Origin: Escherichia phage fDHCT2 | Length of the DNA: 64,000 nt | Direction: 5' to 3' (one strand) | Sequence record: OR427838.1 | Shown here: positions 1,595 through 35,553 of the stretch, piece by piece | Numbering within the stretch: the first letter of the stretch is position 1 | How the letters are laid out: each line of letters begins with the position of its first letter | Made by a program: the position numbers and the translations under genes | Notes under the pieces: model-generated | Database searches by the model: none | Told to the model about the DNA's origin: nothing | What the model saw: only the letters and a program-made list of their open reading frames with translations

Positions 1595-3091
1595 ATGCAA
1601 ATTCAAGTACATTTTGATAATTTTAGTCATGTCCGTATCGAGTGTGATGAATCCACATTCTACGAACTTAGAGACTATTTTAGCTTTGAAGCTGATGGAT
1701 ATAAATTCAACCCTAAATTTCGTTATGGGCAATGGGATGGACGTATTCGTCTTCTAGATTATAACCGTAAACTGCCTTATGGACTTGTCCCTCAAATTAA
1801 AAAGTTCGCCGAACAATTTGAATACTCTCTGTGGATTGACCCACGTATTCTTGAACAGGAAGATATTTCTCGTGAAGATTTTGACTCATGGGTATCTTCT
1901 CAAGAAATTTATTCAGGGTCTACCAAGATTGAGCCTCATTGGTATCAGAATGAAGCCGTATACAACGGCCTGACAAAACGTCGTGCAATTCTGAATTTAC
2001 CTACATCCGCAGGTAAATCATTAATCCAGGCGCTCCTGAGTCGATATTACGTTGAGAACTATGAAGGTAAAATTCTTATCTTAGTTCCTACTACTGCCCT
2101 TGTCGACCAGATGATTAATGACTTCATCGATTATCGATTGTTCCCTAAAGCAGCAATGCTTGGTATTCGTTCAGGTACTGCTCGTGATTCTGATGCAATG
2201 ATTTACGTTTCAACTTATCAAACTGCTATCAAGCAACCTAAAGAATGGTTTGCTCAGTTTGGTATGTTTATGAATGACGAATGCCATTTGGCTACAGGTA
2301 AATCTATTTCTACTATCATCGAAGGCCTAACCAACTGTATGTTTAAATTCGGTTTGTCTGGTTCTTTAAAAGATGGTAAAGCTAATTTAATGCAATATAT
2401 GGGTTTGTTTGGTGATGTGTTTAAGCCAGTATCCACTTCACAGTTAATGGAAGAAGGACAGGTTACTGACCTTAAAATCAACAGTATTTTCCTTCGTTAT
2501 CCGGATGAATTCACTGTTAAGATGAAAGGTAAAGATTACCAATCAGAAATCAAGGTCATTACTAAGGCTACTCGTCGTAATAAATGGGTTGCTAATTTAG
2601 CTGTTAAACTCGCTAAGAAAGAAGAGAACGTATTCCTGATGTTTAAAAACATCGAACACGGAAAAACTCTTTTTGAAATGGTTAAAGAGCAACATAAAGA
2701 AGTTTATTACGTATCAGGTGAAGTTAATACCGAAACGCGTAATGCTCTGAAAGTAATGGCGGAAAATGGTAAGGGTATTATTGTTGTTGCAAGTTATGGT
2801 GTTTTCTCTACTGGTATTTCCGTTAAGAACCTTCACCACGTTGTATTTGCTCATCCAGTAAAATCTAAAATCATTGTACTCCAGACAATTGGTCGTGTAC
2901 TCCGTAAACATGCCTCTAAATCAACAGCACAGGTGTGGGATATCATCGACGACATGGGTGTTAAGCCTAAATCAGCTACGGCTAAAAAGAAATATGTTCA
3001 TTTGAACTACGCCCTCAAACACGCTTTAGAACGTATTCAACGTTATGCTGATGAGAAATTTAATTACGTAATGAAACAGGTGGATTTATGA
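1595..3091 (+). CDS. uvsW: UvsW DNA/RNA helicase (SF2)
   Basis: 498 aa; Walker A LPTSAGKS, DExH-like NDECH, strong recalled similarity to T4 UvsW along whole length. Confidence 0.95.
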   Translation: MQIQVHFDNFSHVRIECDESTFYELRDYFSFEADGYKFNPKFRYGQWDGRIRLLDYNRKLPYGLVPQIKKFAEQFEYSLWIDPRILEQEDISREDFDSWVSSQEIYSGSTKIEPHWYQNEAVYNGLTKRRAILNLPTSAGKSLIQALLSRYYVENYEGKILILVPTTALVDQMINDFIDYRLFPKAAMLGIRSGTARDSDAMIYVSTYQTAIKQPKEWFAQFGMFMNDECHLATGKSISTIIEGLTNCMFKFGLSGSLKDGKANLMQYMGLFGDVFKPVSTSQLMEEGQVTDLKINSIFLRYPDEFTVKMKGKDYQSEIKVITKATRRNKWVANLAVKLAKKEENVFLMFKNIEHGKTLFEMVKEQHKEVYYVSGEVNTETRNALKVMAENGKGIIVVASYGVFSTGISVKNLHHVVFAHPVKSKIIVLQTIGRVLRKHASKSTAQVWDIIDDMGVKPKSATAKKKYVHLNYALKHALERIQRYADEKFNYVMKQVDL

Positions 3092-4162: not shown

Positions 4163-4552
4163 TTAACCACTCTGTGAGAGCTGGATTCTAATTTGCTCTA
4201 ATGTATCCGGGTCATCAACTATACTAAACTGAACCGTCACTATAATCGAGTTATCATCATACACAGGTGTCACACCTACAGCCAGGGTAGAAATTCTGGG
4301 TTCGAAGTTCCGCACAGCGGAAACTATATTACGCTTAATGGTATCCGTGATTAGTGGAGTAATATTTTCAAACAATTGGTTACTGATGTCACAACCAAAT
4401 TCAGGCATAAAAGGGCGTGAACCTTTGCGAGTAGTAATAATGCCTAACAAACTATTTTTTACTGCACGAGCGCCTGTGGCTTTAGCGACGTCTCTATTCC
4501 AAGACGTCCTCATTTCAGGGTCTAAATCTGAATACATTTTATTGATATTCAT
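4163..4552 (-). CDS. 25: Baseplate wedge protein gp25
   Basis: 129 aa; near-identical blocks to T4 gp25 (LLGIITTRKGSRPF.PEFGCD, VRNFEPRI). Confidence 0.9.
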   Translation of the reverse strand: MNINKMYSDLDPEMRTSWNRDVAKATGARAVKNSLLGIITTRKGSRPFMPEFGCDISNQLFENITPLITDTIKRNIVSAVRNFEPRISTLAVGVTPVYDDNSIIVTVQFSIVDDPDTLEQIRIQLSQSG

Positions 4553-5175
4553 TACATCACCTTAAAGAACTCTTTAAGTCCCTCAATAACGTGGACGGTA
4601 TGTTCACCACATTCACAAGAAATAGGTATAGCCAAAATAGGCTTAGGGGCGACTAGGGCATCATAAACTTCTTTTATGTCTTTTTCTGTTATCGCAGAAT
4701 AAAGGTCATCAAGTTCCGCATCACTTAAATCGGAAAGAAAAAGCTTTTCGCCTGCAGAAGTTAAAATATAATCGATACACCCTGCGACCATCATAGCTCT
4801 ATTTTTATCTTCAAAGAGTTTAGGATATCTGAAAACAATTTTAAAGTTGCCAAAGTCTTTAATAACATCAGGCTCTTTACCTAATGTTGCGCGAGTTAGT
4901 GTCATAGGGACAACCTGTGAGCGACCACAACTACAAACCCACTCACGTTCTATATTCACTTCAGCTAATGAATGGGCCCACAGGTTTATCACCAGGAGCT
5001 CAGATTCCTGCTTGTTTAAATCACGAGCATCTGTGCAATTCGAAATGAGTTCATTGATAAAGGACTCTATTCTGCCTTCTAATTTAGCTTGGAGCAAGTC
5101 CTTATACTCTCTGAGGGTAAATGCTCTGCATTTTATGGTTTTGTTTTTAATTTTTACGTCAAAAGTATAATTCAT
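4552..5175 (-). CDS. 26: Baseplate hub subunit gp26
   Basis: 207 aa; position between 25 and 51, size as T4 gp26; late promoter and SD upstream. Confidence 0.8.
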   Translation of the reverse strand: MNYTFDVKIKNKTIKCRAFTLREYKDLLQAKLEGRIESFINELISNCTDARDLNKQESELLVINLWAHSLAEVNIEREWVCSCGRSQVVPMTLTRATLGKEPDVIKDFGNFKIVFRYPKLFEDKNRAMMVAGCIDYILTSAGEKLFLSDLSDAELDDLYSAITEKDIKEVYDALVAPKPILAIPISCECGEHTVHVIEGLKEFFKVM

Positions 5176-5193
5176 TGTCTTCTCCTTTAAGCT

Positions 5194-5201
5194 TATTTAT
5201 A
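5194..5201 (-). promoter_or_regulatory. Late promoter (minus) for 26-25
   Basis: Palindromic TATTTATAAATA: minus-strand TATAAATA about 19 nt upstream of the gp26 ATG. Confidence 0.6.
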
Positions 5202-5205
5202 AATA
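5198..5205 (+). promoter_or_regulatory. Late promoter (plus) for 51-27-28-29-48-54
   Basis: TATAAATA about 21 nt upstream of gp51 ATG, followed by SD AAGAGGA. Confidence 0.65.
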
Positions 5206-5225
5206 CATCAATAAGAGGACACCCT

Positions 5226-5978
5226 ATGGCTAATATAGTACGTTGTGAAATGCCTGATGGAGTCCACCGATTTAAACCTTTTACAGTAGCTGATTATCGT
5301 GATTTTATTTTGATTCGAAATGACATGAATAATAAATCACCTGAAGAGCAAAAACAAATTTTAGATGAGTTACTGGAAGAATACTTCGGTGAATATCCTA
5401 TGTCATGGCGCCCGTATATGTTCATTGAACTTTACACGTCATCACTCGGCAAGACAAAAATTCCTATCCGATACACTTGTAGTAAGTGTGAAAAGGATAG
5501 ACAAGTCTTATTCAATTTGAAACAGGCCAAGTTAGATAACCCTACAATTGAAGTGGCAGGCTTGAAGCTAACATTCAAATTTCCGGAAATAGAATATCAC
5601 GATAAATCTGAATTGATTTTGAACACCCTCCAAACCGTAGAAGATGAAAATGGAAAATATAATTGGACTGACCTTTCTGAAGAAGACCAATTAGCCGTAA
5701 TAGATGCTATAGACTTGTCCACTTTAGAGGATATAGTCAAACAAACAAGCCCTATTCATTTCGAACTCAAATATGGATGCTGTAATCGTAGAACAATTAC
5801 GTATACCGATATTTTAGAGGTGTTTAAGCTTATAGTCAATCCGGATGAGATATTTTTATTTTACCAAATAAACCATTTATTGGTAAAGAACAATTATTCA
5901 TTAGAAAGCATTATGCAGATGATTCCAATCGAACGCGGCATTGCTTTGTCTTTGGTTGAAAAGGACCTTAAGAAATGA
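5226..5978 (+). CDS. 51: Baseplate hub assembly protein gp51
   Basis: Start at internal ATG 5226 (SD AAGAGGAC, downstream of late promoter); 250 aa, position as T4 gene 51. Confidence 0.8.
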
Positions 5979-7144
5979 GTTCAAAAACTATGCAGCGTGA
6001 AGGCTTTCCTAATATTAGTATACGCCTTTACGAAGATTATGACGCCTGGTTAGAGCATCGTTTTGTTGAACTAGGCGCGACATTTACTACTCTAACAATG
6101 CGAGACGGGCTTTACGGTAGTAATGAAGGATTGCTCCAGTTTTATGATGCAAAAAACCTTCATACTAAAATGGATGGTGAGCAGATTATCCAAGTTTCTG
6201 TTAAGAATGCCAACTCGGAACGTACCCAATCAAGAATTTACGGAAGTAAACACTTTGCAGTAGGGGTGGATTCTAAGGGCGACAATATCATAACAATACA
6301 ACTCGCCCCTATCCACTTTTTAGAAAATCTTAAATTCGGACGTATGTTCTTCCCTAGTGTTCAAGAAACATTAACAGAAATGATTGGTGTTATTTACCAA
6401 GACCGTCCGTTACTTGCTCCTCCTTTGAACGGAATAAACGTTTACGTTCCTAATGTTCCTTGGTGTGATTCAATGGACCGTTATATGGAATTTGTACGAG
6501 AAGTAGGTATGGCTGTTGAATCTGATAAATTTGTATTTGTCTGGGAAGATATAGATGGTATTTCTATTATGGACTACGAATTTATGGTTAATCAAGAGCC
6601 AATTAATTTTGTGGTAGGTGAGCCTCGTTTAATAGGCCAATATGTTCAAGATATGGATACTCCTATCGCATTTGATTTTGAATGGTTAACTAAAGCCAAC
6701 CAGCATTCCAGAAAGCCATATGAAAACGCTACTATATACGCCCACTCTTTCTTAGACAAAAACGCCACACGAATTACTTTTGGCGATGGGCAAAACAGTA
6801 TATTGGTTTCTCGCTCTGGTGGATATTCTGATTATACCTACCGAAACGGATTTGAAGAAGCCGATAGATTAGTTACTATGGCCCAATACGACGGCTACGC
6901 GCATTGTAAGGTATACGGTAACTTTGAACTAACTCCAGGCGATAAGATTAATTTCTATGACCCTAAAAACCAATTCCAATACGATTTTTATGTAGACGAA
7001 GTTATTCATGAAGTGAGTAACAATACATCAATTACAAACCTTTATATGTTTACTAATGGTAAGCCTATTAAGATTGAAGAACCACCGAAGGTTAAAAATG
7101 AACTTAAAACTGATACTCCCGATCAAGAAAATAACGCTGGGTGA
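5975..7144 (+). CDS. 27: Baseplate hub subunit gp27
   Basis: 389 aa (T4 gp27 391 aa); ATGA overlap with gene 51 stop. Confidence 0.9.
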
Positions 7145-7625
7145 CAAAGAGATTTCCATTCCTAAATTGGGTCTTAAACACCAGAAATTGGTTAAAGATG
7201 AAAAGGACCCTTACAAGGCTCTTCACATATTAATGAATTCCATTTATAAAGATTTATCCGCGGCAGAGACTGATTTTGCCGCTCTTCACCTTTTAGAATT
7301 CAATGGAAGATTAAAAAGTAAAGTAACCAAAGACGGGTTTACTTATAACTTAAATGACCTTTATATCTGCCAACGACTTGAATTCCAATTCCAAGGTAAA
7401 ACATTTAAATTTAAATCACATGAACCATTTCAAACATTTGGACCTGTTGATAGTGTATTACAGTCCCTTTACCTTGGTGATGATGTACCAGATTTTCTGG
7501 ATATGCCTGCCTTTGTTGCTACATGGGCCGACGATATAACTTCTACTATAGCTATCCCTGGTCCTAATGGTCCTATCAAAGGATTGCTTAAAATCATGGA
7601 TATCTTAAATGAAGAACGAATCTAA
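7098..7625 (+). CDS. 28: Baseplate hub distal subunit gp28
   Basis: Internal ATG 7098 with GAAGG SD gives 175 aa (T4 gp28 177 aa); overlaps gp27 3' end by 47 nt. Confidence 0.75.
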
Positions 7626-9345
7626 TCAGAATAGTTTTCGTCGCAATAAACTGATTGAAGAAATGGCTCCTCAGCGTCGTGCTGAGGCGCTAGCCCAAAC
7701 TCAGAACGACGAATTAGGAAATATATCAGATGTTTTATCCGATTCCCAGGCGGCGTCTGAATTGCTCTCTGAAGTGGTTGAGACAAAGTCCAATCAGATT
7801 ATTAGTTCTGTAGACCGAGTAGATAAAAGCGTCCAAGATGTTGTTGCTGGGACAGAATTAACGGCTGAAGCTATATCAGAACAAACTCAACAATCTAAAG
7901 CTCTTTCGGATGCACTAAACGAAAAGATTAATAAGCTTTCTAATATGTTAGAGGCTAAATTTTCTGGTATTTCTATTCCACCGGAAGGGAGTTCATTAAA
8001 GGTTATTGAAGACTCTATTCCGGAAGAACCTAAGGCCGAAACTCCTAAAGTTCCTGCTGTTGTTGAAGATATTCTTCCGCCCGAAGATAATAAACCTGAC
8101 GCTGAATTTATGCCCGAGCCTCCTAAAAATTCAGATGAAGGTAAAGAAGGTGATAAGACTTCTCTTTCTGATAAAATTGAAGCCCTTACTAAAATAACTG
8201 AAAAGGGATTTAAAGCTTCTATAGGCGTCGCTGATAGAATTTCAGGCATGCTTTTTAAGTATACCATTACCGCTGCCGCTGAAGCTGCTAAACTCGCCGC
8301 AGGTTTAGTCCTTTTAATATTTGGTATAGATGCCATTCGTGTGTACTTCCAATATTTCATGGACCAATTTGAGTCAGGGTGGAAAGAATTTAATGATAAG
8401 TTTAAAGAGTGGGGCCCGTTACTTGAAGGATTAATGACATGGGCCAAGAATGCCGAAGCTATGTTTAGTGAAGGGAACTGGTTAGGTCTGGCTGAAGCCA
8501 TTATTCGTGGTATGGTTAATCTTACTAAAAATATGGCCCAGCTTTTAATGCTCGGTATTTCTAAGTTGATTTCTGCTATTTTAAGTAAAATACCTGGTAT
8601 GGGTGAGATGGCTGAAAACGTAGAGGCTTCCGCTTTAATGTCGTATCAACAAAATACAGGGGCCACTTTGGATGATGAAGACCAAACTAAAGTAGCCAAG
8701 TACCATGATAGGCGTTCTGCCGAGGCTTTAGAAACGGCCGAGAAAATGAATAAGAAGTATAAGGATAAACCCGAGCTTATAAACCGAGCAGAGAAATACG
8801 GTAATCTTACTAAAGAACAAGCTGACCAATTACGTGCAGGTGGAATTGACACAAGCTTCCGTGACCTCCCTGAAGAAGAACGATTAGAGTATTTCAAGAA
8901 GCGTGATAAAGCCCAAGCCGATATTATTCGTTTGACTCAAACTGCTGATAATATAATGAAGCCTGATTCTAAAGATATCGAAAATGCTAAAGCATTTAAA
9001 GCTGATATCGAGAAACAATTGGCCGACCCTATTATGGCTAAAGGCGGAGCACCGAAGGACCTTAATATCCAGCAATTACTTGATAAGATGAATAAATCTT
9101 TAGAGAAATTTAATGAAGCCGAAAAGCCTAAACCTGCTTCTGTAGCGGAATCTCCTGAAAATACCCAGGTTAAAAAGGTGGATGAGCAAATGAGAGCAAA
9201 GGAAAATGCTAAATATAGTCAGCAAGCTCCAACTCAAATAAATCAGCAAACGAATATCAAGAAAACGAGTAAGACTAGTTATAATTTACCTCCGCAGTCT
9301 TCTACTCCTGCTCCTGGTATGCGTCAAGCTACTAAAGTTAATTAG
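7609..9345 (+). CDS. 29: Baseplate hub/tail length determining protein gp29
   Basis: 578 aa; long low-complexity helical protein at the T4 gene 29 position. Confidence 0.85.
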   Translation: MKNESNQNSFRRNKLIEEMAPQRRAEALAQTQNDELGNISDVLSDSQAASELLSEVVETKSNQIISSVDRVDKSVQDVVAGTELTAEAISEQTQQSKALSDALNEKINKLSNMLEAKFSGISIPPEGSSLKVIEDSIPEEPKAETPKVPAVVEDILPPEDNKPDAEFMPEPPKNSDEGKEGDKTSLSDKIEALTKITEKGFKASIGVADRISGMLFKYTITAAAEAAKLAAGLVLLIFGIDAIRVYFQYFMDQFESGWKEFNDKFKEWGPLLEGLMTWAKNAEAMFSEGNWLGLAEAIIRGMVNLTKNMAQLLMLGISKLISAILSKIPGMGEMAENVEASALMSYQQNTGATLDDEDQTKVAKYHDRRSAEALETAEKMNKKYKDKPELINRAEKYGNLTKEQADQLRAGGIDTSFRDLPEEERLEYFKKRDKAQADIIRLTQTADNIMKPDSKDIENAKAFKADIEKQLADPIMAKGGAPKDLNIQQLLDKMNKSLEKFNEAEKPKPASVAESPENTQVKKVDEQMRAKENAKYSQQAPTQINQQTNIKKTSKTSYNLPPQSSTPAPGMRQATKVN

Positions 9346-9353
9346 GATTAATA

Positions 9354-10442
9354 ATGAAAGCAAAAGAACTTGACTTTGATGTAGCCTCCTTGTTTAAAGG
9401 AGGCTCAAAGACCTCCGCCGGCCAGTCTAAAGCTAAACCGGCCCAAACTACAGTAATGGCCCAATACCCGGCAGAAAGGGCCTCTGGCAATGATACCTCC
9501 ACAGATATGGTGTTAAGCGATTTATATAAAAATGGATTACTTTTTACGGCATATAATTTTAGCTCTCGTGTATCACCTGATTTGCGTAATGACCGATCAA
9601 GTCAAATGTCTAAAAAGTTTTCAAAAGCTGCTAGTAAGCTTACCGGCAATACCGGAGGATTCAGCGCGGTTAAAAACTTGTTCAGTAATAACTCTAAGGG
9701 AGTTAAATTTGACAACCAAGCTTTGGCAAATATTTTACTCCCACGTTCTAAATCTGACGTAGATTCGGTGTCGCATAAATTTAATGATGTCGGTGAATCA
9801 TTAATTACTAAAGGTGGTGGTACTGCTACAGGTATTTTAAGTAACATTGCAAGTACTGCTGTATTTGGTGCATTGGAATCTGTAACTAACGGGGTAATGG
9901 CTGATTCAGGTGAACAGATATACACTACCGCCCGTAGTATGTATGCAGGGCCGGATAACCGTACTAAGGTATTTACCTGGGAAATGACCCCACGAAACGC
10001 CCAAGACCTTATCCAGATTATTAAAATATATGAAATCTTCAACTATTATTCTTATGGCGAAACAGGTAATTCGGCTTTCGCAGGTGAATTAAAAGAGAAG
10101 ATTGATACTTGGTATCGTTCTACGTTTAAAAAAGAAGCTATTGACAAGTTTGATGGTAAGCTATTAGGGGAAAGTATTACAAGCTTCCTTTCTAATGTTA
10201 TTGTGGTAAGTAACCCGACCATTTGGTATATCCGAAACTTTGGCGATAGCAGTTCATATGATGGTCGTGAAGATATTTTTGGTCCATGCCAAATCCAGAG
10301 TATCCGTTTTGATAAAACTCCGGACGGCCATTTTAACGGATTGGCTATTGCTCCTAACTTACCATCTACGTTTAGTTTAGAAGTTACTTTCCGTGAAATC
10401 ATTACTTTGAACCGTGGCTCACTTTATACGGAAGGATTCTAA
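9354..10442 (+). CDS. 48: Baseplate tail-tube junction protein gp48
   Basis: 362 aa (T4 gp48 364 aa), syntenic. Confidence 0.85.
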   Translation: MKAKELDFDVASLFKGGSKTSAGQSKAKPAQTTVMAQYPAERASGNDTSTDMVLSDLYKNGLLFTAYNFSSRVSPDLRNDRSSQMSKKFSKAASKLTGNTGGFSAVKNLFSNNSKGVKFDNQALANILLPRSKSDVDSVSHKFNDVGESLITKGGGTATGILSNIASTAVFGALESVTNGVMADSGEQIYTTARSMYAGPDNRTKVFTWEMTPRNAQDLIQIIKIYEIFNYYSYGETGNSAFAGELKEKIDTWYRSTFKKEAIDKFDGKLLGESITSFLSNVIVVSNPTIWYIRNFGDSSSYDGREDIFGPCQIQSIRFDKTPDGHFNGLAIAPNLPSTFSLEVTFREIITLNRGSLYTEGF

Positions 10443-11371
10443 TGTATACTTTACAAGAATTTCAGAACCAGGCAATTAATATTGACCTACAGAGGAATAA
10501 CCTGTTTAGTGTAGTATTTGCTACGGTTCCTTCTTCTAAATCCCAAGCGCTCCTCGACCAGTTCGGTGGAGCTTTATTTAACAATATCCCATTGAATAGC
10601 GATTTGTTTGGTATTACACAAGGAGAGTTGACCCAAGGTGTTACGACATTAGTGACAGCGGGCACTCAGAAGTTGATTCGTAAGTCAGGCATAAGTAAAT
10701 ATCTGATTGGAGCTATGTCATCCAGGGTTGTGCAGAGCTTACTAGGAGAGTTTGAAGTAGGTACATATCTGATGGATTTTTTCAATATGGCCTATCCTAC
10801 GGCAGGTCTTTTAGTCCACGCCGTTAAAATCCCGGATAATACTTTGAACTATGAAATGGATTTGAACCACAACTCGCCTAACATCAAAATTACCGGAAGA
10901 GAATATTCTCCATTGGTATTAAGCTTCCGTATGGATTCTGAAGCTGCTAACTACCGTGCTTTTAATGATTGGGTCAACAGTGTTCAAGACCCTATTACAC
11001 AATTAAGAGCATTACCGGAGGATGTTGAAGCTGACATTCAAGTCAACCTTCATTCTCGTAATGGATTACCCCATACAGTAGTAATGCTTAACGGGTGCGT
11101 TCCTGTGGGTGTTTCATCGCCGGAATTATCTTATGATGGCGATAACCAGATTGCTTCGTTTGATGTTACATTTGCTTATAGAAGTGTTCAGACAGGTTCA
11201 GTTGGTAAACAAGCCGCTTATGAGTGGTTGGAAGATAAGATTATTAAAGGCGTGGCGGGTATAAGTGAGAGCAATTCGCTGAGTTCTTCAGTGGCCAAAT
11301 TAAGTAGACTTTCAGGAGCTTCTAGTGGATTAACAGGATTGGTTAATAGTAGAATATCGAGGTTGCTATAG
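10442..11371 (+). CDS. 54: Baseplate tail-tube initiator gp54
   Basis: 309 aa, syntenic with T4 gene 54; ATGT overlap with gene 48 stop. Confidence 0.85.
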   Translation: MYTLQEFQNQAINIDLQRNNLFSVVFATVPSSKSQALLDQFGGALFNNIPLNSDLFGITQGELTQGVTTLVTAGTQKLIRKSGISKYLIGAMSSRVVQSLLGEFEVGTYLMDFFNMAYPTAGLLVHAVKIPDNTLNYEMDLNHNSPNIKITGREYSPLVLSFRMDSEAANYRAFNDWVNSVQDPITQLRALPEDVEADIQVNLHSRNGLPHTVVMLNGCVPVGVSSPELSYDGDNQIASFDVTFAYRSVQTGSVGKQAAYEWLEDKIIKGVAGISESNSLSSSVAKLSRLSGASSGLTGLVNSRISRLL

Positions 11372-11375
11372 CAAA

Positions 11376-11399
11376 AAAGGAGAGCGTACGCTCTCCTTT
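11376..11399. terminator. Bidirectional intrinsic terminator (perfect 24-nt palindrome)
   Basis: aaaggagagcgtacgctctccttt between convergent gene 54 (+) and the minus-strand alt-side operon; A-run upstream and T-run downstream on both strands. Confidence 0.7.
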
Positions 11400-11405
11400 A
11401 GGGGT

Positions 11406-11696
11406 TTACTTACGGAACGAAATGAAACCTGCTGCAGTCATTAATGGCTGCTTTTTAACAAAGACTGTAATAGAAATAGGAGCTTCAGATTCGAGTTGTC
11501 CTGTCACTACACCGTTAAAAATGTTTTCGGTTTGTTCTGGATAAGAAAAATTCTCAACAGGTCGGATATCAAACTGTTTGTCTTCACCAAAAACTCGACG
11601 TAATTCATTACCTACGGCACTGTCAAACTCTTCGGAAGCAGGGATAACGTTTTCAACTACCAGTTCTTGACCATTAAAACGGAATGCAGATTTCAT
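11406..11696 (-). CDS. Hypothetical protein (96 aa)
   Basis: ORF with early promoter and SD GAGGAGAACATT upstream; terminator downstream. Confidence 0.55.
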   Translation of the reverse strand: MKSAFRFNGQELVVENVIPASEEFDSAVGNELRRVFGEDKQFDIRPVENFSYPEQTENIFNGVVTGQLESEAPISITVFVKKQPLMTAAGFISFRK

Positions 11697-11724: not shown

Positions 11725-11754
11725 ATAGTACCACATCCTTGTGGTGTTGTAAAC
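11725..11754 (-). promoter_or_regulatory. T4-type early promoter (minus strand)
   Basis: Minus strand: GTTTAC-18 bp-TACTAT; spacer contains inverted repeat ccaca/tgtgg. Confidence 0.5.
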
Positions 11755-13877
11755 TACATTTTGAATTTATTTGATAAAGAAGAGATATCCAAAGACGCTG
11801 CAAGGATTTCCATAGCTTCGTTGCTTTCAGAAACGGATTCATTAACCAAGAATTGTCTAAATCCATCCATCAGGCGAACTTCACCAGTTTCCATCAAATG
11901 GTCACCATCGTAAACAGATTCGCTGAGCTCTGAAAGAGGTGTTACGGTAGCTTCCATAAGGTATTTGTGAGATACTCTATCATTCATGGCAAAAGCCGCT
12001 ACTTTATCAACCTTCAACAATAATCCGCGCGGAAGGATAATTTCTGCTTCTTCGGCATATTCTGTAAGGTCACCAGGAGCGATAACTTTAACTGCTTCAG
12101 CACCTCGAATAACCATACCAATTTCAGCAATTCTATCCGCAGGACCTTCAGGTGCAATTGGATTACCGAACTCGTCTTCTTCCCATTCTACCTCTTCGTC
12201 ATCGACTTCACCCACATCAGATGAACTACCGCTAGCCAATTTAAACAACTCATCAGCGGAGGATAAAGAACCTTCGCCGCCAACAAAAACGGCTTGGTTG
12301 TCGAGGGCCATATAATTTTTACCAAATTCACCAAAGATGTTAGGCTTTAATGAGGCTGACACAAAGTTCTTAAAGTAAAATGTTTTGTTATCGATATTAT
12401 GGCGCAGAATTTTGTATGGCAAATCCTGACCACGATACAAAATAGTACCCTTAGGAAGTTTAATACCCTTAGTAAATGCTGAGTCTAAATCCTTAATCAA
12501 TTTAATAGCCGTTGTATTGTTTTCGGATTCAGGTTTACCTAAAAGGAATAAGTTCATAGGAGCATATTCAGCCGCGCAATATTCAATAATAGCATTGCTT
12601 TCGTCTTTGGTTAGGTCCTTAGGTTTAATGAGCTCGCCTGAATAAGCATATGCATCACTAATAGAATCGTTAACCAGTTTATAAACGGCTTCCATAGCGA
12701 AAGCAATTCGAGAGGCCTTTTCTGAAGGGGAACCCTTAAAACGGGTACTCAGGTTATTAACAATTTTCTTAATAATATCCAGACTATTGGTTGTATTGAT
12801 TTGCGAAAGACCACTTAAAAGTCTATCGACTTCTGTATTAAAAAATGCCATATTATTAGAGTAAATTTCAAACCCTTGTTTATCTCTATTAGCATAATTT
12901 AGTTTAAATTTACTATCAGTCATTAAAGCGTGTGTGAGAGCAATAGTGTATCTAAAGTTGGCAAGGTCCTCGCTCTTAGATTTAAACTGAGAAGCCTGGC
13001 GCATTTTAGTAATAGCACCTTTTTTAAAGTTCTGGCTAATCTGTTCAATACCTTCATTCTCAGGGCCTTCAGCCGTGTGAACCGGTACAGAAGCTTCAAA
13101 CTCGTTATAAACCTGCAATTCTTTAGGGGACAAAGTTTCAGGCTCAGCAGTAGAATACTGCGCGGCTGCTGCCATACGACGGGAAATCTTAGTACGGGTA
13201 ATGACAGACTTATCAGTACGTTTCTCTTCAACTTGTGCAATAGATGCCGCTACTGCTTCGACCTTACTTACGGCCTGGCCGGTTTTCTTAGAAACATACA
13301 CTTCGCCAACTTTAGACTCAACTTTAGTATAAAGATCGGCATTAATTTCAGGCATACCCTTGATATCTTCAATATTAGCACCACGACGTACTAAAAGAAC
13401 GTAGGTATGTTTTCCGCTGAATTGGAACATGTCGTCAACAACTTTAAACTTACCACCGGTACGAGCCATAGCCAAACGAGCTAATACGCGCTGAACGGTA
13501 GGGCCTTTACCTTTCATTTTCTTAGTAGGGAAACGGAATAAAACCGCGTCCATTTTAAGTTTGTTTATTTGTTCATATATGGTATCGAAAATGGTGTTCA
13601 GTGTACCGAGTGGATCGGTACCCAAACCGCCCTTGAGTTCTGCCGGAGCGCCTTTAGCAGATAAACTCATTAAGATAACATGGACGTACTTATCGCCCGC
13701 CTTAACCATCTTAATAGCGTCGCCTTCAGACGCATAAGATACCATACGTGCTACTAAATTGTCATTACCAGGAGCATGTACCGCAAAAATCTGCGGTACG
13801 CCTGAGCCAGGTTTAAGATTTGTTACTGGGTAATTTTTTTTATCGCTTTTATCAAAAACTTCGTTTAAATTTTCCAT
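11754..13877 (-). CDS. Alt-like ADP-ribosyltransferase paralog (707 aa), predicted capsid-packaged
   Basis: N-terminal about 230 aa nearly identical to the two upstream copies; C-terminal ART-like motifs YRGQ, SAS, EAEIILPRG; unique central and extreme C-terminal regions. Confidence 0.75.
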   Translation of the reverse strand: MENLNEVFDKSDKKNYPVTNLKPGSGVPQIFAVHAPGNDNLVARMVSYASEGDAIKMVKAGDKYVHVILMSLSAKGAPAELKGGLGTDPLGTLNTIFDTIYEQINKLKMDAVLFRFPTKKMKGKGPTVQRVLARLAMARTGGKFKVVDDMFQFSGKHTYVLLVRRGANIEDIKGMPEINADLYTKVESKVGEVYVSKKTGQAVSKVEAVAASIAQVEEKRTDKSVITRTKISRRMAAAAQYSTAEPETLSPKELQVYNEFEASVPVHTAEGPENEGIEQISQNFKKGAITKMRQASQFKSKSEDLANFRYTIALTHALMTDSKFKLNYANRDKQGFEIYSNNMAFFNTEVDRLLSGLSQINTTNSLDIIKKIVNNLSTRFKGSPSEKASRIAFAMEAVYKLVNDSISDAYAYSGELIKPKDLTKDESNAIIEYCAAEYAPMNLFLLGKPESENNTTAIKLIKDLDSAFTKGIKLPKGTILYRGQDLPYKILRHNIDNKTFYFKNFVSASLKPNIFGEFGKNYMALDNQAVFVGGEGSLSSADELFKLASGSSSDVGEVDDEEVEWEEDEFGNPIAPEGPADRIAEIGMVIRGAEAVKVIAPGDLTEYAEEAEIILPRGLLLKVDKVAAFAMNDRVSHKYLMEATVTPLSELSESVYDGDHLMETGEVRLMDGFRQFLVNESVSESNEAMEILAASLDISSLSNKFKM

Positions 13878-13880
13878 TAT

Positions 13881-15929
13881 TTACCCTTGGGTGAATTTTT
13901 CTGGGGTTTCGTCAAAATTAATACATGAAGCTAAAATAGGCATTATATCCACCTTGGTCGATTTGACGAATGAATCAAAAGACACAGGGTTGTCGGTCTC
14001 TGTTTCTACGCCTTGGTAAACAACCAATTCGCCGGTTTCCATCAATGCATCACCATCGTAGATAACCGCATTTTCTGCTAGTTGGTCTGTGGTCTGGATA
14101 TCAGCTTCCAATAATTTGGTGTTGTAGTTTCCTTTATATGAGGCATCTGTAATTTTAGTAATCTTAACAGTAGTTCCACGTGGAAGAATAACCTCTTGTT
14201 CTGTTGGAGAACCTGACAATTCACCAGGCACAATTACGTTAATAGAGTCTGCACCGGAAATTTTCCAGCCGACGTTCATCATTGTATTTTCGGAACTCGT
14301 CAGCATACTTGGAAGAACAATTTCATTATCGCCTTGGAAAGATGTCCCAACGCGATAGTCCTGATGAACTGCGGCCATTGCGACGTTTGATACCCAGCCA
14401 CCAAAGATAATCGGCTTAAGGGACGTTGATACATAGTTCCTGAAATAAAACAATTTTGAGTGTTTGATTTTATCAAAAGTGTTAACATTTAAATATTGAC
14501 CACGCCAAAGTGTAATATCAGGTGGCAATTTATGGCCAATTTCAAATGCCGCGTCCATATCATTAATTACTTCAATTACACGCTGACTATCAATGAATTC
14601 TGCATCCTCTTCATAATAATTACCCAACAAATAATTATTAACATCGGTATAATATTGGCCGCAATAAGAAGAAATAGCCTCACGCTGCTCATACTCAAAT
14701 CGATTATCGCTATAACTGGCTGTAAAATGCATAACACTTTCTGACGCTTCATTAGCAAAGTCGGTAACAGCAGCACTTATACGTTGAGCATACTCTTGTT
14801 CCCAAAGCTCTGCTGCATAAGTGGCTGCATCCAGGTTAGGAGGAGCCTCATTCATTTTTCTTTCGATAAATGCAGCTTTGCGAAGGTTAAGAACCTCTGC
14901 ACATGATTCGGCAAAAATCTGCATCTGCTTCATACTGCCGACAGGAGCACGTTTAAGTTCACGATGCATACGGTTAAAAATTGGGTCAGAGTCTTCGACC
15001 CGAATTTCTTCTTTCCAAACACCGTTTGCTCGCATAGCCATATCTGCCGCGCGCATACGCTCCATAGTATTCGTTTCAGAAGGTTGAATAAAAATTTCTA
15101 GTTCTTCATAATCATCGATAAGTTCCGCTGTTGCTGGGGCACTAAATTTTGATGCCTCTGCATCAATCTCATTCCAACCTTCCGGAACTTCATCTCGAGG
15201 AGAATACTGGGCTGCGGCTACAGCACGCCTAGAAATCTTGGTAGTGGTAATAACAGCCTTATCCGTACGTTTTTCTTCGACTGCCGCTATACTAGCAGAT
15301 AGTGCTTCTATTTTGGTTACTGATTGGCCTGTTTTCTTGGATACATAAACCTCACCAACTTTAGACTCAACCTTAGTGTAAAGGTCTGCATCAATTTCAG
15401 GCATACCTTTTATGTCCTCAATATTAGCTTGTTTACGAACCAGTAAAACGTATGTATGTTTGCCTGTAAATTGATACATATCATCGACAACTTTAAACTT
15501 GCCGCCAGTACGAGCCATCGCCAATCGTGCCAATACACGTTGAACAGTAGGACCCTTACCTTTCATTTTCTTGGTAGGGAACCGGAAAAGAACTGCATCC
15601 ATTTTAAGTTTGTTTACTTGTTCGTATACAGTATCAAAAATGGTATTCAGCGTACCAAGTGGGTCAGAACCTAACCCGCCTTTCAGCTCGGCTGGGGTAC
15701 CCTTAGCAGACAAACTCATCAAAATAACATGAACATATTTGTCGCCAGGCTTAACCATTTTAATAGCGTCTCCTTGAGACGCATAAGATACCATACGAGC
15801 CACCAGATTATCATTACCTGGTGCTTGGATAGAGAAAATCTGTGGAACACTGGAACCCGGTTTAAGATTTGTTACTGGATAGTTTTTAGCGGAATCACTA
15901 TCAAAAACCTCGTTTAAATTTTCCATCAT
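13881..15929 (-). CDS. Alt-like ADP-ribosyltransferase paralog (682 aa)
   Basis: Shares N-terminus with neighbours; motifs WRGQ, STS, EQEVILPRG; C-terminal tail ..PEKFTQG shared with alt. Confidence 0.8.
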   Translation of the reverse strand: MMENLNEVFDSDSAKNYPVTNLKPGSSVPQIFSIQAPGNDNLVARMVSYASQGDAIKMVKPGDKYVHVILMSLSAKGTPAELKGGLGSDPLGTLNTIFDTVYEQVNKLKMDAVLFRFPTKKMKGKGPTVQRVLARLAMARTGGKFKVVDDMYQFTGKHTYVLLVRKQANIEDIKGMPEIDADLYTKVESKVGEVYVSKKTGQSVTKIEALSASIAAVEEKRTDKAVITTTKISRRAVAAAQYSPRDEVPEGWNEIDAEASKFSAPATAELIDDYEELEIFIQPSETNTMERMRAADMAMRANGVWKEEIRVEDSDPIFNRMHRELKRAPVGSMKQMQIFAESCAEVLNLRKAAFIERKMNEAPPNLDAATYAAELWEQEYAQRISAAVTDFANEASESVMHFTASYSDNRFEYEQREAISSYCGQYYTDVNNYLLGNYYEEDAEFIDSQRVIEVINDMDAAFEIGHKLPPDITLWRGQYLNVNTFDKIKHSKLFYFRNYVSTSLKPIIFGGWVSNVAMAAVHQDYRVGTSFQGDNEIVLPSMLTSSENTMMNVGWKISGADSINVIVPGELSGSPTEQEVILPRGTTVKITKITDASYKGNYNTKLLEADIQTTDQLAENAVIYDGDALMETGELVVYQGVETETDNPVSFDSFVKSTKVDIMPILASCINFDETPEKFTQG

Positions 15930-18014
15930 TTACCCTTGGATGAATTTTTCTGGGATGTCATAGAGGTCTATGCATGAAGCCAAAAGAGGCAATACATCAA
16001 ACCGTGTAGATTTAACAAATGAATCAAAAGATACAGGGCTTTCGGAAGTATCGAAGTCATCTTGATATACGACCAACTCGCCGGTTTCCATTAGTACGTC
16101 ACCATCATATACCACAGATTCTTGAAGCTCATCTGTTGTCATAACTTCAGCTTGGATGAGTTTTGTATTACTAGATGTTGTTCCATCATTATTAGAAGAA
16201 TCTGTTATTTTATTAACTTTGACCATTAATCCACGCGGTAGAATAACTTCGGCTTCAGTTGCTATTCCGAGATTTCCTGGATATACGACATTAACTTTAT
16301 GAGCCCCATCAATAGCCCATCCTATTTGAACTTTAACATAATCAGGATTTTCTTTATATGCTCTTATTTCATTAGGATTAATAGTTATTCCTTCTTCATT
16401 TTTATCGACTGTCAATTCATTGCGAACTTCCGGTTCTAAAAGACCAATACCTGCGTGGGTAACACCAAAACGTCCAAAAATGATAGGAGTTAAAGAAGTA
16501 GATACAAAATTTCTGAAATAGAACACTTTATTTTTAACTAGTGCTTCGTATATAGGAGCAGTCATACTCTGAGCACGATAAACTGTGATGCCCTCTGGTA
16601 TACGGTCGCCATTTTCAAAAGCAGAATCCAAATTATTAACCGCGGATTCGATATCTTTTTCGCTCATAACCTCATAGTTCTGAGGATTATAACGTCCTAA
16701 AAGAAGATTATTTATGTCTGTATATCCTGAACCACAATATTCTCTGATGCCGCGCTTTTGTGATGGGGTATATTTAGAGCCCTCACGAGCAATAGTAATA
16801 TCGACCATAATACCGCCACCCACACCAGCAAAACTATATACACGTTTTTTAATGAACTTGGTCTTGGCGGCTTTCCACTTCGCATCGGTCAATTCATTCC
16901 AGAGGTCGTCAGGTTGGCCTTTACGAGTTTTGTTATGCCAGGCCAGCCATTCACCTTTGTATTCTTCGAAAACGGTATTAATAGCAGAGGCATATTTTTC
17001 TAGAGCTTTAACAGATGTCAAAGGTTCGTTTTTGATGGCCGTAAGAATTTTATCTTTAATTTTCTCTTGGATTTCACCTATACCGTGAAGAGGAAACATT
17101 TTATAATCGTAATGCAATTCTTCAGCCGTGCCTTCAGCCACTATATTAGCAACCTTATTTTTAGCCGCAGGAGAATTGTTATTAGTAACCATTTCCTGAG
17201 CCTCAGGGATTAATGGAACTGTTGCAGGTTTATTAAAATCTGCTGCAGTAGCTTCATATTTCTTAAACAATTCACTTTCATTACGATAAGATTCCAATGA
17301 TTGGCTTGCTGCAATGGCGCGCCTAGAAATCTTAGTCTTGGTTATAACCATTTTATCAGTGCGACGTTCTTCAACCTTAGCAATACTGCTGGCAATAGCA
17401 GTTTCTTTAGTAACCTGCACACCTTCTTTTTTGGAAATATAAACTTCACCGACATCAGAATCTACCTTAGTATACAATTCAGCATTAATTCCAGGCATAC
17501 CTTTGATATCTTCGATATCAGCTTGTTTACGAACTACTAAGATGTAAGTATGTTTACCGGTAAATTGGTACATAGCCGGAACCACTTTAAAACGTCCACC
17601 GGTTTTCTGTGCTACCAAACGTTGGATAATCCGTTGGACAATAGGTCCTTGTCCTTTCATTTTCTTGGTAGGAAAACGGAACATCACGGCATCCATACGA
17701 AGCTTTTTAACTTGGTCATAAACCACATCAAAAATAGTATTAATCGCATCTACAGGAGTAGGGCCAAGGCCACCTTTAAGTTCGGCTGGAGTACCTTTAG
17801 CCGATAAGCTCATTAAAATTACATGAGCATATTTATCGCCTAATTTAACTTGTTTGATTGCGTCGCCTTCAGAAGCATAAGAAACCATACGTGCTACTAA
17901 TTGGGACTCTACGCCACCAATCTTCCAAATCTGCGGTACTTTAAGTTTAGGGTTCAAGTTTACTGTAGGCAGTGTGCCTTCGGACTCAAACACTTCATTT
18001 AATTGTTCGGTCAT
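15930..18014 (-). CDS. alt: Alt ADP-ribosyltransferase (closest to T4 Alt), 694 aa
   Basis: Full-length similarity to recalled T4 Alt (SQSLESYR.., SKYTPSQKRGIREYCGSGYTDINN, YRAQ, FVSTSL, EAEVILPRGLMVKVNKITD, ..KFIQG). Confidence 0.85.
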   Translation of the reverse strand: MTEQLNEVFESEGTLPTVNLNPKLKVPQIWKIGGVESQLVARMVSYASEGDAIKQVKLGDKYAHVILMSLSAKGTPAELKGGLGPTPVDAINTIFDVVYDQVKKLRMDAVMFRFPTKKMKGQGPIVQRIIQRLVAQKTGGRFKVVPAMYQFTGKHTYILVVRKQADIEDIKGMPGINAELYTKVDSDVGEVYISKKEGVQVTKETAIASSIAKVEERRTDKMVITKTKISRRAIAASQSLESYRNESELFKKYEATAADFNKPATVPLIPEAQEMVTNNNSPAAKNKVANIVAEGTAEELHYDYKMFPLHGIGEIQEKIKDKILTAIKNEPLTSVKALEKYASAINTVFEEYKGEWLAWHNKTRKGQPDDLWNELTDAKWKAAKTKFIKKRVYSFAGVGGGIMVDITIAREGSKYTPSQKRGIREYCGSGYTDINNLLLGRYNPQNYEVMSEKDIESAVNNLDSAFENGDRIPEGITVYRAQSMTAPIYEALVKNKVFYFRNFVSTSLTPIIFGRFGVTHAGIGLLEPEVRNELTVDKNEEGITINPNEIRAYKENPDYVKVQIGWAIDGAHKVNVVYPGNLGIATEAEVILPRGLMVKVNKITDSSNNDGTTSSNTKLIQAEVMTTDELQESVVYDGDVLMETGELVVYQDDFDTSESPVSFDSFVKSTRFDVLPLLASCIDLYDIPEKFIQG

Positions 18015-18049
18015 AATAATTCCTCTTTAATAACCTTATTTATGCCAGA

Positions 18050-23382: not shown

Positions 23383-23631
23383 TTACTTCAGGGTAATAAT
23401 AAAATGACGTACTGCTTTACGAGCTGCAGAAGCCAGAGGCTTAGCAAATTTCAGTTCATCTTTAGCTTCCAGTTCAGCAGCCAGAGTAGCCTGAGCTGGG
23501 TTCAGATGTTTGAAATAACGCAGGATTTCCAGTGCTTCGGCTTCAACATCAATAGATGCGCCGTAGTTTTCGTGACCGTTGTTCCAAGCGTTGCGTTGCA
23601 GTTCAAGAGCGTGATTCAGATGTTTGTTCAT
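23383..23631 (-). CDS. rIII: rIII lysis-inhibition accessory protein
   Basis: 82 aa, same length as T4 rIII and adjacent to gene 31 as in T4; sequence recalled as closely similar. Confidence 0.65.
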   Translation of the reverse strand: MNKHLNHALELQRNAWNNGHENYGASIDVEAEALEILRYFKHLNPAQATLAAELEAKDELKFAKPLASAARKAVRHFIITLK

Positions 23632-23777
23632 TTTAAATTCTCAATTCGAGATAAAGATTGGCGGACACGTTCTTCTGAATTTCACTTCCTTTCGGCAAGT
23701 CTCTCAGTTGTAGTCCACCGCTTAGGATTCTCCGGTTAACTAACTAGTCCGGCAGCCAATCCATATTATTATTTATA

Positions 23778-24101
23778 TCACTTATAAAGACACGGAATAG
23801 CTTTATAGTGACAGGTAACGAATTTTTGTTTAATTTCTTTAGGTTGTTTAATACCTAATGCAACCAACGGATGAGGCACGTTAGCAATCTTACCAACAGG
23901 AAGTGGAGTCAAATCACCTACTTCACAAAAATCTTCAGGGACATCAGGTCCTACAGAATAAATTTCACAAAGTTCAGGGATTTCACCTTGATGAAGTTTG
24001 CCAATAACGATACCAGATGCAGTAGTTTCTTCATCGCCAGCTTGTTTTGGTTCGGAAACGAGAATAACATATTCTCCGACCGCTTTAATAGGAAGTTCCA
24101 T
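23778..24101 (-). CDS. 31: Co-chaperonin gp31 (GroES-like)
   Basis: 107 aa; near-identical to recalled T4 gp31 ([50 protein letters not shown]). Confidence 0.92.
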
Positions 24102-33297: not shown

Positions 33298-35553
33298 TTA
33301 AAGCTTACAAGCTGCACAATCGTCGGCTTTAGGAGTTTCGATTTCATAATCGTCAGTACCAGAGCCATCACGGGTATTATGATAATAAAGGTTCTTACCA
33401 CCAAAGTACCAGAAATATAACAGGTCATCAAGCATTACCGACATAGGAACTTTTCCTTTCTCATAATTCTGAGGGTCGTAATACGTATTCGCTGATGCTG
33501 ATTGGCAAACCCATTTCAACATAATTGCTACTTGGGTAAGATAAGGTTTATTACCTTTCTTAGCGAGGCTCCAAGCATAATCATAGAGGCCTTGGTTATG
33601 TTCTACATTAGGAACTACCTGACGGAAGTTACCTTCTTTAGATTCTTTAATACTTACCGGACCACGCGGAGGTTCGATACCGTTGGTAGAGTTGGAAACC
33701 TGGCTGCTTGACTCGCATGGCATAAGTGCTGATAATGTGCTATTACGGATGCCATGTTTAACCAAGTCTTCCCGCAACGACGACCAGTCACAAACATAGT
33801 TTGGGGCTGCGATTTGGTCAATCTTTTTACTGTACCAGTCGATAGGAAGCTCGCCTCGAGACCATTTAGTGTCTGAATAATACTCGCAAGGTCCTTTTTC
33901 TTCGGCCAGCTTGATTGATGCTCGGATAAGTCCATACTGTAATCTCTCAAACAGTTCATGAGTTAAATCGTTTGCGTCTTCATAAGAAGCAAAGTTGCTT
34001 GCCAGCCATGCTGCGTAGTTAGTAACACCGACACCCAGGTTACGACGTTTCTTAGCCTTCAAAGCTTCAGGAACAGGATAGCTTTGATAATCTAATAGGT
34101 TATCAAGTGCACGTACCTGTACTTCAGCGAGTTCGTTGATTTTGTCTTGGTCTTGCCAATCAAAGTTATCCAACACGAATGCAGACAGCGTACACAACCC
34201 GATTTCAGCGTCCGGACTATTCACATCGGTAGTTGGGATAGCAATTTCACAGCATAGGTTACTTTGGCGAATAGGAGCCTTTTCACGAATAAATGGTGTG
34301 AAGTTATTAGTGTTATCAACGAACTGAGGATAAATTCGTGCAGTGCCTGAACGTTCAGTCATGAACAATTCAAAGAGGTCACGTGCTTTAATACGTTTCT
34401 TACGAATACTAGAGTCTTTTTCAGCCGCTTCATACAATTCACGGAAACGTTCTTGGTCTTCAAAATAAGAATAATAAAGCTCACCACCCATTTCATGAGG
34501 ACTGAACAGCGTGATGTAATCATTTTTACCGAAACGTTCCATCATAAGGTCGTTCAACTGGATTCCGTAGTCCATATGGCGAATACGGTTCTCATCGACC
34601 CCTTTGTTGTTTTTCAGAACGAGCAGATTTTCAACTTCCAAATGCCAAATAGGATAATAAGCAGTAGCAGCGCCGCCACGGATTCCACCTTGTGAACATG
34701 ATTTAACAGCAGTCTGGAAATGTTTCCAGAATGGAATAACGCCTGTATGTTTGACTTCACCCATGCCAATACGAGAACCTTCAGCACGAATCATACCAAC
34801 GTTGATACCAATACCTGCACGTTTAGAAATGTATTCAATTATTGAGTTAGCAGTTTTGTTAATAGATTTCAGTGAGTCGCCTGCTTCAATAACCACACAA
34901 GAACTAAATTGACGGGTTGGTGTACGTGCCCCAGCCATAATAGGAGTTGGTAATGAAACCTGACGGGTACTTACAGCATCATAAAAACGAATAATATGGG
35001 CTAAACGGTTCCCTGGCTCGTCTTGGTGTAAGGCCATGCCAATACACATGATAGCGAACTGAGGGGTTTCGTAGATTTTACCGGTTGTTTTATCTTTAAC
35101 CAGATATTTCTCTTTAAGCTGCATCGCCCCAGCATAAGTCAATTCGAAATCGCGTTCATGCTTAATATGAGATTCTAAGAAAGTAATTTCTTCTGCAGAG
35201 TAACGAGATAACAACTCAGGGTCATATTTACCTTCGTTAACACAATAGGAAATATGGTCAATAAAACTACGCGGTTCAAACTGGCCATAAACTTCTTTAC
35301 GCAGGGCAAACATCAATTGCTTTGCAGCAACATACTGATAATCAGGTTCTTCAACCGAAATAAGGTTAGCTGCTACCTTAACAGTCAGATTCTGGATATC
35401 TTTGGTAGTCATACCATCACGAAGGTGGGTTTTGATTTCTTCGTATAATTCATATGGGTCGATTTGGGTTCCTTCACAGCCCCAAGTCAGAACTTTAATA
35501 ATTTTTTGTGCGTCAAAATCTTGGGATACACCACTACTCTTTTGTACTTGCAT
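33298..35553 (-). CDS. nrdA: Ribonucleotide reductase large subunit
   Basis: 751 aa; active-site motifs incl. NLCCEIA and C-terminal Cys pair; syntenic with T4 nrdA. Confidence 0.95.
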   Translation of the reverse strand: MQVQKSSGVSQDFDAQKIIKVLTWGCEGTQIDPYELYEEIKTHLRDGMTTKDIQNLTVKVAANLISVEEPDYQYVAAKQLMFALRKEVYGQFEPRSFIDHISYCVNEGKYDPELLSRYSAEEITFLESHIKHERDFELTYAGAMQLKEKYLVKDKTTGKIYETPQFAIMCIGMALHQDEPGNRLAHIIRFYDAVSTRQVSLPTPIMAGARTPTRQFSSCVVIEAGDSLKSINKTANSIIEYISKRAGIGINVGMIRAEGSRIGMGEVKHTGVIPFWKHFQTAVKSCSQGGIRGGAATAYYPIWHLEVENLLVLKNNKGVDENRIRHMDYGIQLNDLMMERFGKNDYITLFSPHEMGGELYYSYFEDQERFRELYEAAEKDSSIRKKRIKARDLFELFMTERSGTARIYPQFVDNTNNFTPFIREKAPIRQSNLCCEIAIPTTDVNSPDAEIGLCTLSAFVLDNFDWQDQDKINELAEVQVRALDNLLDYQSYPVPEALKAKKRRNLGVGVTNYAAWLASNFASYEDANDLTHELFERLQYGLIRASIKLAEEKGPCEYYSDTKWSRGELPIDWYSKKIDQIAAPNYVCDWSSLREDLVKHGIRNSTLSALMPCESSSQVSNSTNGIEPPRGPVSIKESKEGNFRQVVPNVEHNQGLYDYAWSLAKKGNKPYLTQVAIMLKWVCQSASANTYYDPQNYEKGKVPMSVMLDDLLYFWYFGGKNLYYHNTRDGSGTDDYEIETPKADDCAACKL

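Follow-up and report, generated by a model that had tools for sequence, protein, structure and literature searches.

Genes 26 and 51 stand at the heads of two divergent baseplate operons, and the spacer between them measures 50 bp (5176-5225 of the 64,000-nt stretch of DNA analysed, hereafter the window). How does so short a spacer serve both directions, and can the two directions be served at once on the same DNA? A sequence-only reading had proposed that one palindrome supplies overlapping late promoters, driving 26-25 leftward and 51-54 rightward, and that the two operons either share one late initiation complex or compete for it.

The genes on either side can be named with confidence. The window comes from a Dhakavirus (a JS98/Bp7-like T4-type phage), and the region from 4400 to 6100 is 97-98% identical in DNA to Dhakavirus genomes (Bp7, IME08, QL01, JS98-like and others). 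According to the IME08 annotation, the local order is hoc, inh, uvsW, uvsY.-2, uvsY, 25 and 26 on one side of the spacer, and 51, 27, 28, 29, 48 and 54 on the other; the genes annotated as 26 and 51 in Dhakavirus genomes share the same 97-98% DNA identity with the flanking ORFs of the window. Gene 26 (4552-5175, minus strand), which encodes the 207-aa hub assembly protein, matches PF12322 (T4_baseplate) over its full length (2.8e-52), as well as phrog_150 and annotated homologues. Its stop codon is overlapped by gene 25 (4163-4552, minus), which encodes a baseplate wedge subunit identified by PF04965 (GPW_gp25) and the IME08 annotation. On the other side, gene 51 (5226-5978, plus strand) encodes the 250-aa hub assembly catalyst and also matches PF12322 over its full length (1.2e-56) and phrog_150. 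Genes 27, 28, 29, 48 and 54 (5975-11371, plus) were assigned from their ORFs and the IME08 annotation and are tightly packed after gene 51; gp27 carries the Pfam domains PF09097 and PF09096. The proteins gp26 and gp51 are paralogues: both match PF12322 and phrog_150 over their full lengths, and BLASTP aligns them collinearly at 21% identity (E 2e-5).

The limits of the spacer depend on the start codons. The ORF list begins gene 51 at a TTG (5175), but its true start is the ATG at 5226, as shown by a conserved Shine-Dalgarno sequence, by the ATG itself and by the JS98 RefSeq annotation, in which the same 50-bp spacer separates genes 26 and 51. In the GenBank record of IME08, by comparison, gene 26 is extended to a non-canonical ATA inside the palindrome (IME08 sequence 5774-5797) and gene 51 is begun at a TTG that overlaps gene 26, so that the two CDSs run into each other over the promoter. 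Both the JS98 RefSeq annotation and the conserved Shine-Dalgarno/ATG pairs mark this overlap as an annotation artefact. One use of the present analysis is therefore that it fixes the true starts of gene 51 (ATG 5226) and gene 26 (5175), which some database records carry across the promoter. No promoter features are annotated at the 26/51 site in the records of T4 (NC_000866, AF158101, KJ477684), JS98 or IME08.

Read directly from the plus strand of the window, positions 5190-5209 are agctTATTTATAAATAcatc. Within them lies the 12-nt palindrome TATTTATAAATA (5194-5205, both strands), and the whole spacer with its bordering start codons reads CAT tgtcttCTCCTTtaagct TATTTATAAATA catcaatAAGAGGAcaccct ATG on the plus strand. 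The palindrome is made of two late-promoter octamers TATAAATA, one directed towards gene 51 (P51; 5198-5205, plus strand) and one towards gene 26 (P26; 5194-5201, minus strand). The two share 4 bp (TATA, 5198-5201), so that elements of the -10 type overlap on opposite strands. Both octamers are exact matches, as the sequence-only reading had claimed, and the span that it gave (5190-5206) contains the palindrome.

The surroundings of each octamer are those of a T4-type late promoter, in which the octamer occupies positions -13 to -6 (PMC1524935). On both strands the octamer stands at this distance from a suitable start, with no -35 element, in non-coding DNA shortly upstream of a late gene on the same strand: the P51 octamer is 20 nt ahead of the ATG at 5226, and the P26 octamer is 18 nt ahead of the start codon at 5175. 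By the -13 to -6 rule, the late transcript of 51-27-28-29-48-54 is predicted to start at 5211 (A), with a leader of 15 nt, and that of 26-25 at 5188 (A on the minus strand), with a leader of 13 nt; an initiating purine thus lies 6 nt past the octamer on both sides. Each leader would contain a Shine-Dalgarno sequence, AAGGAG for gene 26 (5182-5187, minus; a CTCC-type block kept in all spacers) and AAGAGGA for gene 51 (5213-5219, plus; an AGGAG/AGAGG block kept in all spacers). No match to a sigma-70-like promoter was found within the 26/51 spacer. Compared with the canonical T4 late promoter P23, the two candidates have the same octamer position, the same lack of a -35 element, an A at the start and a short leader (PMC7892883; PMC2988020). 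They differ in that P23 is unidirectional, whereas the two promoters of the window have 4 bp in common, and the clamps serving them would have to be opposite in polarity. We conclude that the palindrome very probably represents two gp55-dependent T4-type late promoters, placed back to back with a 4-bp overlap and orthologous to P26 and P51 of T4.

A short A/T-rich palindrome could in principle arise by chance in A/T-rich intergenic DNA, and two observations are in line with this: intergenic G+C is 34% in the window, and the octamer is not more abundant there than in shuffled sequence. Nine perfect octamers were seen in the 64,000-nt window, vs 6.8 ± 2.7 in shuffles, and one-mismatch octamers were slightly depleted (121 seen vs 148 ± 13 expected). 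With these figures, octamer enrichment over the whole window was dropped as a test; the placement of octamers is informative, their total count is not. All nine perfect octamers are in non-coding DNA, which makes up 4,048 nt (6.3%) of the window and for which a composition-matched model predicts 0.93, whereas the 59,952 nt of coding DNA contain none, vs 6.1 expected (P about 0.002). Moreover, seven of the nine are followed, 18-33 nt further on, by a start codon in the same orientation (chance, 0.235; maximum in 200 simulations, 2). The absence of perfect octamers from genes, together with the mild depletion of one-mismatch variants, suggests that spurious late promoters are selected against in coding DNA. 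For the 12-mer itself, the expectation is 0.03 per window and 2e-5 in the 26/51 spacer. Chance is thus a vanishingly improbable explanation, opposed by these expectations and refuted by the conservation of the 12-mer, which is invariant across at least 14 genera.

The identical 12-mer is present between genes 26 and 51 of T4 (6451-6462 of the retrieved T4 sequence). There, too, the spacer is 50 bp long, the same genes flank it in the same orientation, and Shine-Dalgarno sequences stand on both sides; the two phages differ in the bases that flank the palindrome and in the arm towards gene 26, which is 21 nt in T4 vs 18 nt here, and their gp26 proteins are about 50% identical. The comparison with the T4 26/51 intergenic region that the sequence-only reading had suggested as a check thus yields the same palindrome at the orthologous site. 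The late promoters at T4 26/51 were reportedly mapped, and described as overlapping and as driving divergent transcription of the baseplate cluster, by Scarlato, Storlazzi, Gargano and Cascino (Virology 1989, 171:475), and read-through into 25 and uvsY is said to have been reported by Gruidl et al. (Virology 1991). In the partial collection of full-text literature that we searched, no account was found of the palindrome or of late-transcript mapping at T4 26/51. The 26/51 palindrome is an element already known from T4 and conserved here, not a discovery.

To establish how widely the element is conserved, we compared 26/51 spacers from Dhakavirus, T4 and 12 further phage genera. The palindrome was found in 13 of these 14 genera first compared. 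Among the Tevenvirinae it occurs in Dhakavirus, Tequatrovirus, Gaprivervirus, Kanagawavirus, Jiaodavirus, Karamvirus, Roskildevirus, Mosigvirus and Moonvirus, and among the Twarogvirinae (Acinetobacter phages) in Hadassahvirus, Acajnonavirus and Lazarusvirus. It is also present in Providencia phage PSTCR6, in Proteus Bragavirus and, without exception, in the 41 IMG/VR loci encoding a gp26 relative. Across the 56 sampled carrier loci (31 distinct spacers, about 14 genera) all 12 bases are identical; since the 31 distinct spacers were aligned on the palindrome, the 12 columns are invariant by construction among carriers, and what counts as evidence is the presence of the 12-mer at every divergent 26/51 junction sampled, the Krischvirus and Tulanevirus variants excepted. 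Conservation falls off sharply on both sides: the four bases either side of the palindrome carry only 0.08-0.45 bits in the 31 distinct spacers, and the length of the arm that leads to the start codon varies, being 16-34 nt for gene 26 and 16-24 nt for gene 51 (ATG). The next conserved positions are the A six bases past each octamer and, after it, the two Shine-Dalgarno blocks. Of the 31 distinct spacers, 94% have an A at the predicted +1 for gene 51 and 90% at that for gene 26.

This pattern bears on whether both octamers are in use. The left-hand TATT of the palindrome is required only by the minus-strand octamer, and the right-hand AATA only by the plus-strand octamer. Both are invariant, which shows purifying selection acting on the two promoters alike. 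It could still be argued that one octamer works and the other is a by-product of the motif, since TATAAATA starts with the palindromic TATA and partial reverse matches will arise easily. Such a by-product would, however, need four more specific bases, and both outer tetramers are invariant in the 31 distinct spacers while the neighbouring bases are unconstrained. In addition, a conserved +1 A, a Shine-Dalgarno sequence and a late gene are present on the gene 26 side and again on the gene 51 side, and neither gene has another consensus octamer upstream. We regard a single working octamer as very improbable. That both promoters are used is supported by the clean phylogenetic footprint, in which 12 invariant bases are set between free flanks and a conserved A marks each predicted start. 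A textbook T4 element is thereby seen to have been preserved without change in a Dhakavirus and in much of the Straboviridae. Together, the motif, its placement, its conservation and its identity with T4 support the earlier proposal that 26-25 and 51-54 would be driven by overlapping divergent late promoters.

Perfect dyad symmetry is typical of operators, and the palindrome might mainly be the site of a dimeric protein, for example an A/T-binding protein like DsbA, that regulates both operons, with the match to the late consensus being secondary. T4 DsbA binds, weakly, to A/T-rich sites that overlap two late promoters (PMC2988020), and the window contains a dsbA-like gene. The shape of the conserved block speaks against an operator: it is exactly two consensus octamers, with no meaningful extension of the dyad symmetry past the 12-mer, and a conserved A stands at the canonical +1 distance on both sides. 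DsbA is, furthermore, non-essential and of low affinity (PMC2988020), and in Krischvirus and Tulanevirus the symmetry is altered while late-promoter-like elements are still present on both strands. Thus, an operator is a highly doubtful reading of the palindrome. A cruciform or other DNA structure was rejected as well, the spacer folding no better than shuffles (z -0.42).

The exceptions show how far the arrangement can vary. In Krischvirus (RB49-like kvi; kvi sequence 1131-1200), the 26/51 junction contains TATTTAGT-ATTT-TATAAATA; here ACTAAATA on the minus strand is adjacent to TATAAATA on the plus strand, the two being 4 bp apart, without overlap. At the same junction Aeromonas Tulanevirus ZHF (sequence 1244-1291) carries TATTTAAATA, a palindrome of 10 nt with greater overlap, whose TAAATA cores overlap by 2. 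In Pseudotevenvirus (RB16, Miller) and Slopekvirus (KP15-like) the genes are arranged as 54-51-26-25 on one strand, with a hairpin before gene 51 and no divergent promoter. As these exceptions show, overlap of the octamers is usual, not obligatory. The geometries of Krischvirus and Tulanevirus are also natural experiments on the importance of the exact spacing. As a separate observation, the divergent and tandem arrangements of genes 26 and 51 differ by an inversion with its breakpoint at the promoter. Because gp26 and gp51 are paralogous, we considered whether the palindrome is the scar of an inverted duplication. The tandem order 51-26-25 fits a tandem duplication followed by inversion equally well, however, and the similarity of the flanks is accounted for by the Shine-Dalgarno sequences and A-rich leaders.

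Given two late promoters, how would they work side by side? In the cryo-EM structure of the T4 late open complex, the DNA is melted between -12 and +2, and the non-template single strand is read by gp55, which flips the bases at -12, -9 and -8; gp33 contacts the upstream duplex and gp45 encircles the DNA (PMC7892883). The gp45 clamp is at the upstream end and adds 13 bp to the footprint. Its orientation depends on which strand bears the nick or 3' end, and determines the direction in which transcription is activated (PMC2988020). In late infection, host RNA polymerase with gp55 and gp33, tethered to the gp45 sliding clamp, would open the DNA at TATAAATA. On the plus strand, transcription would begin at about 5211 and proceed through 51-27-28-29-48-54; on the minus strand, it would begin at about 5188 and proceed through 26-25, probably continuing towards uvsY. 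The predicted bubbles, 5199-5212 for P51 and 5187-5200 for P26, would overlap, with the -12 adenines in neighbouring base pairs (plus strand, 5199; minus strand, 5200), and the upstream duplex of each promoter would be the bubble of the other.

From this sharing of melted DNA we infer that only one polymerase could be accommodated per DNA copy at a time; the two open complexes should be mutually exclusive on one DNA molecule. By the polarity rule, a right-facing clamp would activate P51 only and a left-facing clamp P26 only. Since clamp orientation fixes direction, we infer that each direction would be served by clamps of opposite polarity. The earlier suggestion, that one late initiation complex is either competed for or shared by the two operons, can accordingly be divided: competition agrees with the overlap of the predicted bubbles, whereas a shared complex is unlikely, because clamp polarity would commit it to one direction only. 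With regard to the proteins involved, a homologue of gene 33, the late-transcription co-activator, is encoded in the window (40634-40936, minus; phrog_254 'late promoter transcriptional regulator', 1.4e-28). The window does not extend to genes 55 and 45, which belong to the core gene set of T4-like phages. The gene 33 homologue overlaps the end of the dsbA-like gene (phrog_639) by 20 nt (40634-41186, minus), and a review of T4 late transcription describes the dsbA-33 overlap as conserved (PMC2988020).

The extent of the overlap is itself constant. A TA duplication, TATTTATATAAATA, would keep both octamers intact, and no TA-duplicated or spaced variant was seen in the 56 loci, despite frequent indels in the flanks. 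One explanation is that the exact 4-bp overlap has been selected as a clamp-polarity switch, in which only the promoter faced by the clamp fires and the open complexes exclude each other. Such a switch would fit the invariant geometry and the lack of duplicated or spaced variants; nonetheless, we consider it decidedly unlikely. Were it true, each replicated copy would fire either 26-25 or 51-54, according to the strand of the nick or primer end at which the clamp was loaded, and the output of the hub-assembly paralogues would follow fork direction and stay balanced over the pool of DNA copies.

Alternatively, the two promoters might cooperate, such that opening or occupancy in one direction stimulates the other and the geometry was selected for reciprocal stimulation. 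Precedent comes from bacteria, where bidirectional promoters with symmetric, overlapping -10 elements are widespread; their divergent starts are 7-25 bp apart, 18 bp being the commonest spacing and 23 bp also being favoured (Warman et al., bioRxiv 10.1101/2020.01.31.928960). These sigma-70 promoters show reciprocal stimulation and not competition (bioRxiv 10.1101/2020.01.31.928960), the predicted start spacing in the window (5211-5188, 23 bp) coincides with one favoured Warman spacing and lies inside the 7-25 bp definition, and the exact overlap is kept in the 56 loci even though a TA duplication would spare both octamers. In the sigma-70 case, however, stimulation needs a contact of R451 with position -18 at the 18-bp spacing (bioRxiv 10.1101/2020.01.31.928960), whereas gp55 is a minimal sigma for which no such contact is described (PMC7892883), and both bubbles at 26/51 would need the same base pairs. 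Cooperation therefore appears rather unlikely. In both systems, -10-type elements on opposite strands coincide by means of a partly self-complementary motif; they differ in that the Warman type uses sigma-70 and R451-mediated reciprocal stimulation, whereas the motif and context in the window indicate gp55 and activation by a clamp. As the sigma factor and the activation mechanism differ, we do not class the palindrome as a Warman-type promoter; the likeness is one of geometry only.

The window contains a second divergent late-gene junction, between inh (868-1539, minus; phrog_1051) and uvsW (1595-3091, plus; PF21241 and helicase domains). The sequence-only reading had noted a pair of octamers at 1559-1580 in this spacer and had called them two separate octamers. 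The pair is indeed present, with a copy of TATAAATA for uvsW at 1559-1566 on the plus strand (predicted start about 1572) and another for inh (and hoc) at 1573-1580 on the minus strand (predicted start about 1567); their separateness, in contrast, does not hold. Read from left to right, this 55-bp spacer has the plus-strand octamer first and the minus-strand octamer second, so that the two face each other across a 6-bp gap. The predicted starts consequently cross, and the first six or so bases of the two transcripts would be complementary; the predicted bubbles overlap nearly completely, more than at 26/51. The arrangement TATAAATA-N6-TATTTAT(A/T) is kept in three lineages (Dhakavirus, T4-type phages and a third lineage), in which the N6 varies (TAACTA, TAGTTA, TAGATA, TGTATG) and the 6-bp spacing is fixed.

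Like the 26/51 pair, the inh/uvsW pair of the window and of T4 comprises two consensus octamers on opposite strands of one short spacer between divergent late genes. Unlike it, the octamers are facing, with complementary 5' ends of about 6 nt, whereas those at 26/51 are back to back, with starts 23 bp apart. Thus, both divergent late-gene junctions in the window appear, from their sequences, to be physically overlapping promoter pairs, in two geometries. Side by side, the 26/51 pair and the facing inh/uvsW pair offer two natural templates for the clamp-polarity rule of T4.

Downstream of P51, a one-mismatch scan found no further consensus late octamer on the plus strand from 5226 to 11371, and the genes there abut or overlap; both findings fit a single late unit, 51-54. 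A perfect hairpin with a 10-bp stem, AAAGGAGAGC-GTAC-GCTCTCCTTT (11376-11399), separates the end of gene 54 (11371) from a convergent ORF on the minus strand (11406-11696). The hairpin has a T run on the minus strand only and is probably a terminator that closes both the 51-54 unit and the converging unit.

Several other octamers in the window were noted. Gene 31 (23778-24101, phrog_931) is followed, directly after its stop codon, by a perfect late octamer (23770-23777, minus), and rIII (23383-23631, minus, phrog_1457) begins about 130 nt downstream of this octamer. The placement predicts late transcription of rIII with a leader of unusual length. The longest ORF of that stretch, on the plus strand (23404-23739), was rejected as spurious, the real gene being rIII on the minus strand. 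Another perfect octamer, at 35617-35624 (minus), precedes by 63 nt a minus-strand ORF of 751 aa (33298-35553); this would be an unexpected place for a late promoter if that ORF is an early nucleotide-metabolism gene. Finally, three successive ORFs of 707, 682 and 694 aa are arranged head to tail on the minus strand at 11754-18044. A late octamer variant at position -13, CATAAATA, is found at 18037-18044, 22 nt upstream of the first of these ORFs of about 690 aa, and the three may be a late-expressed array of paralogues.
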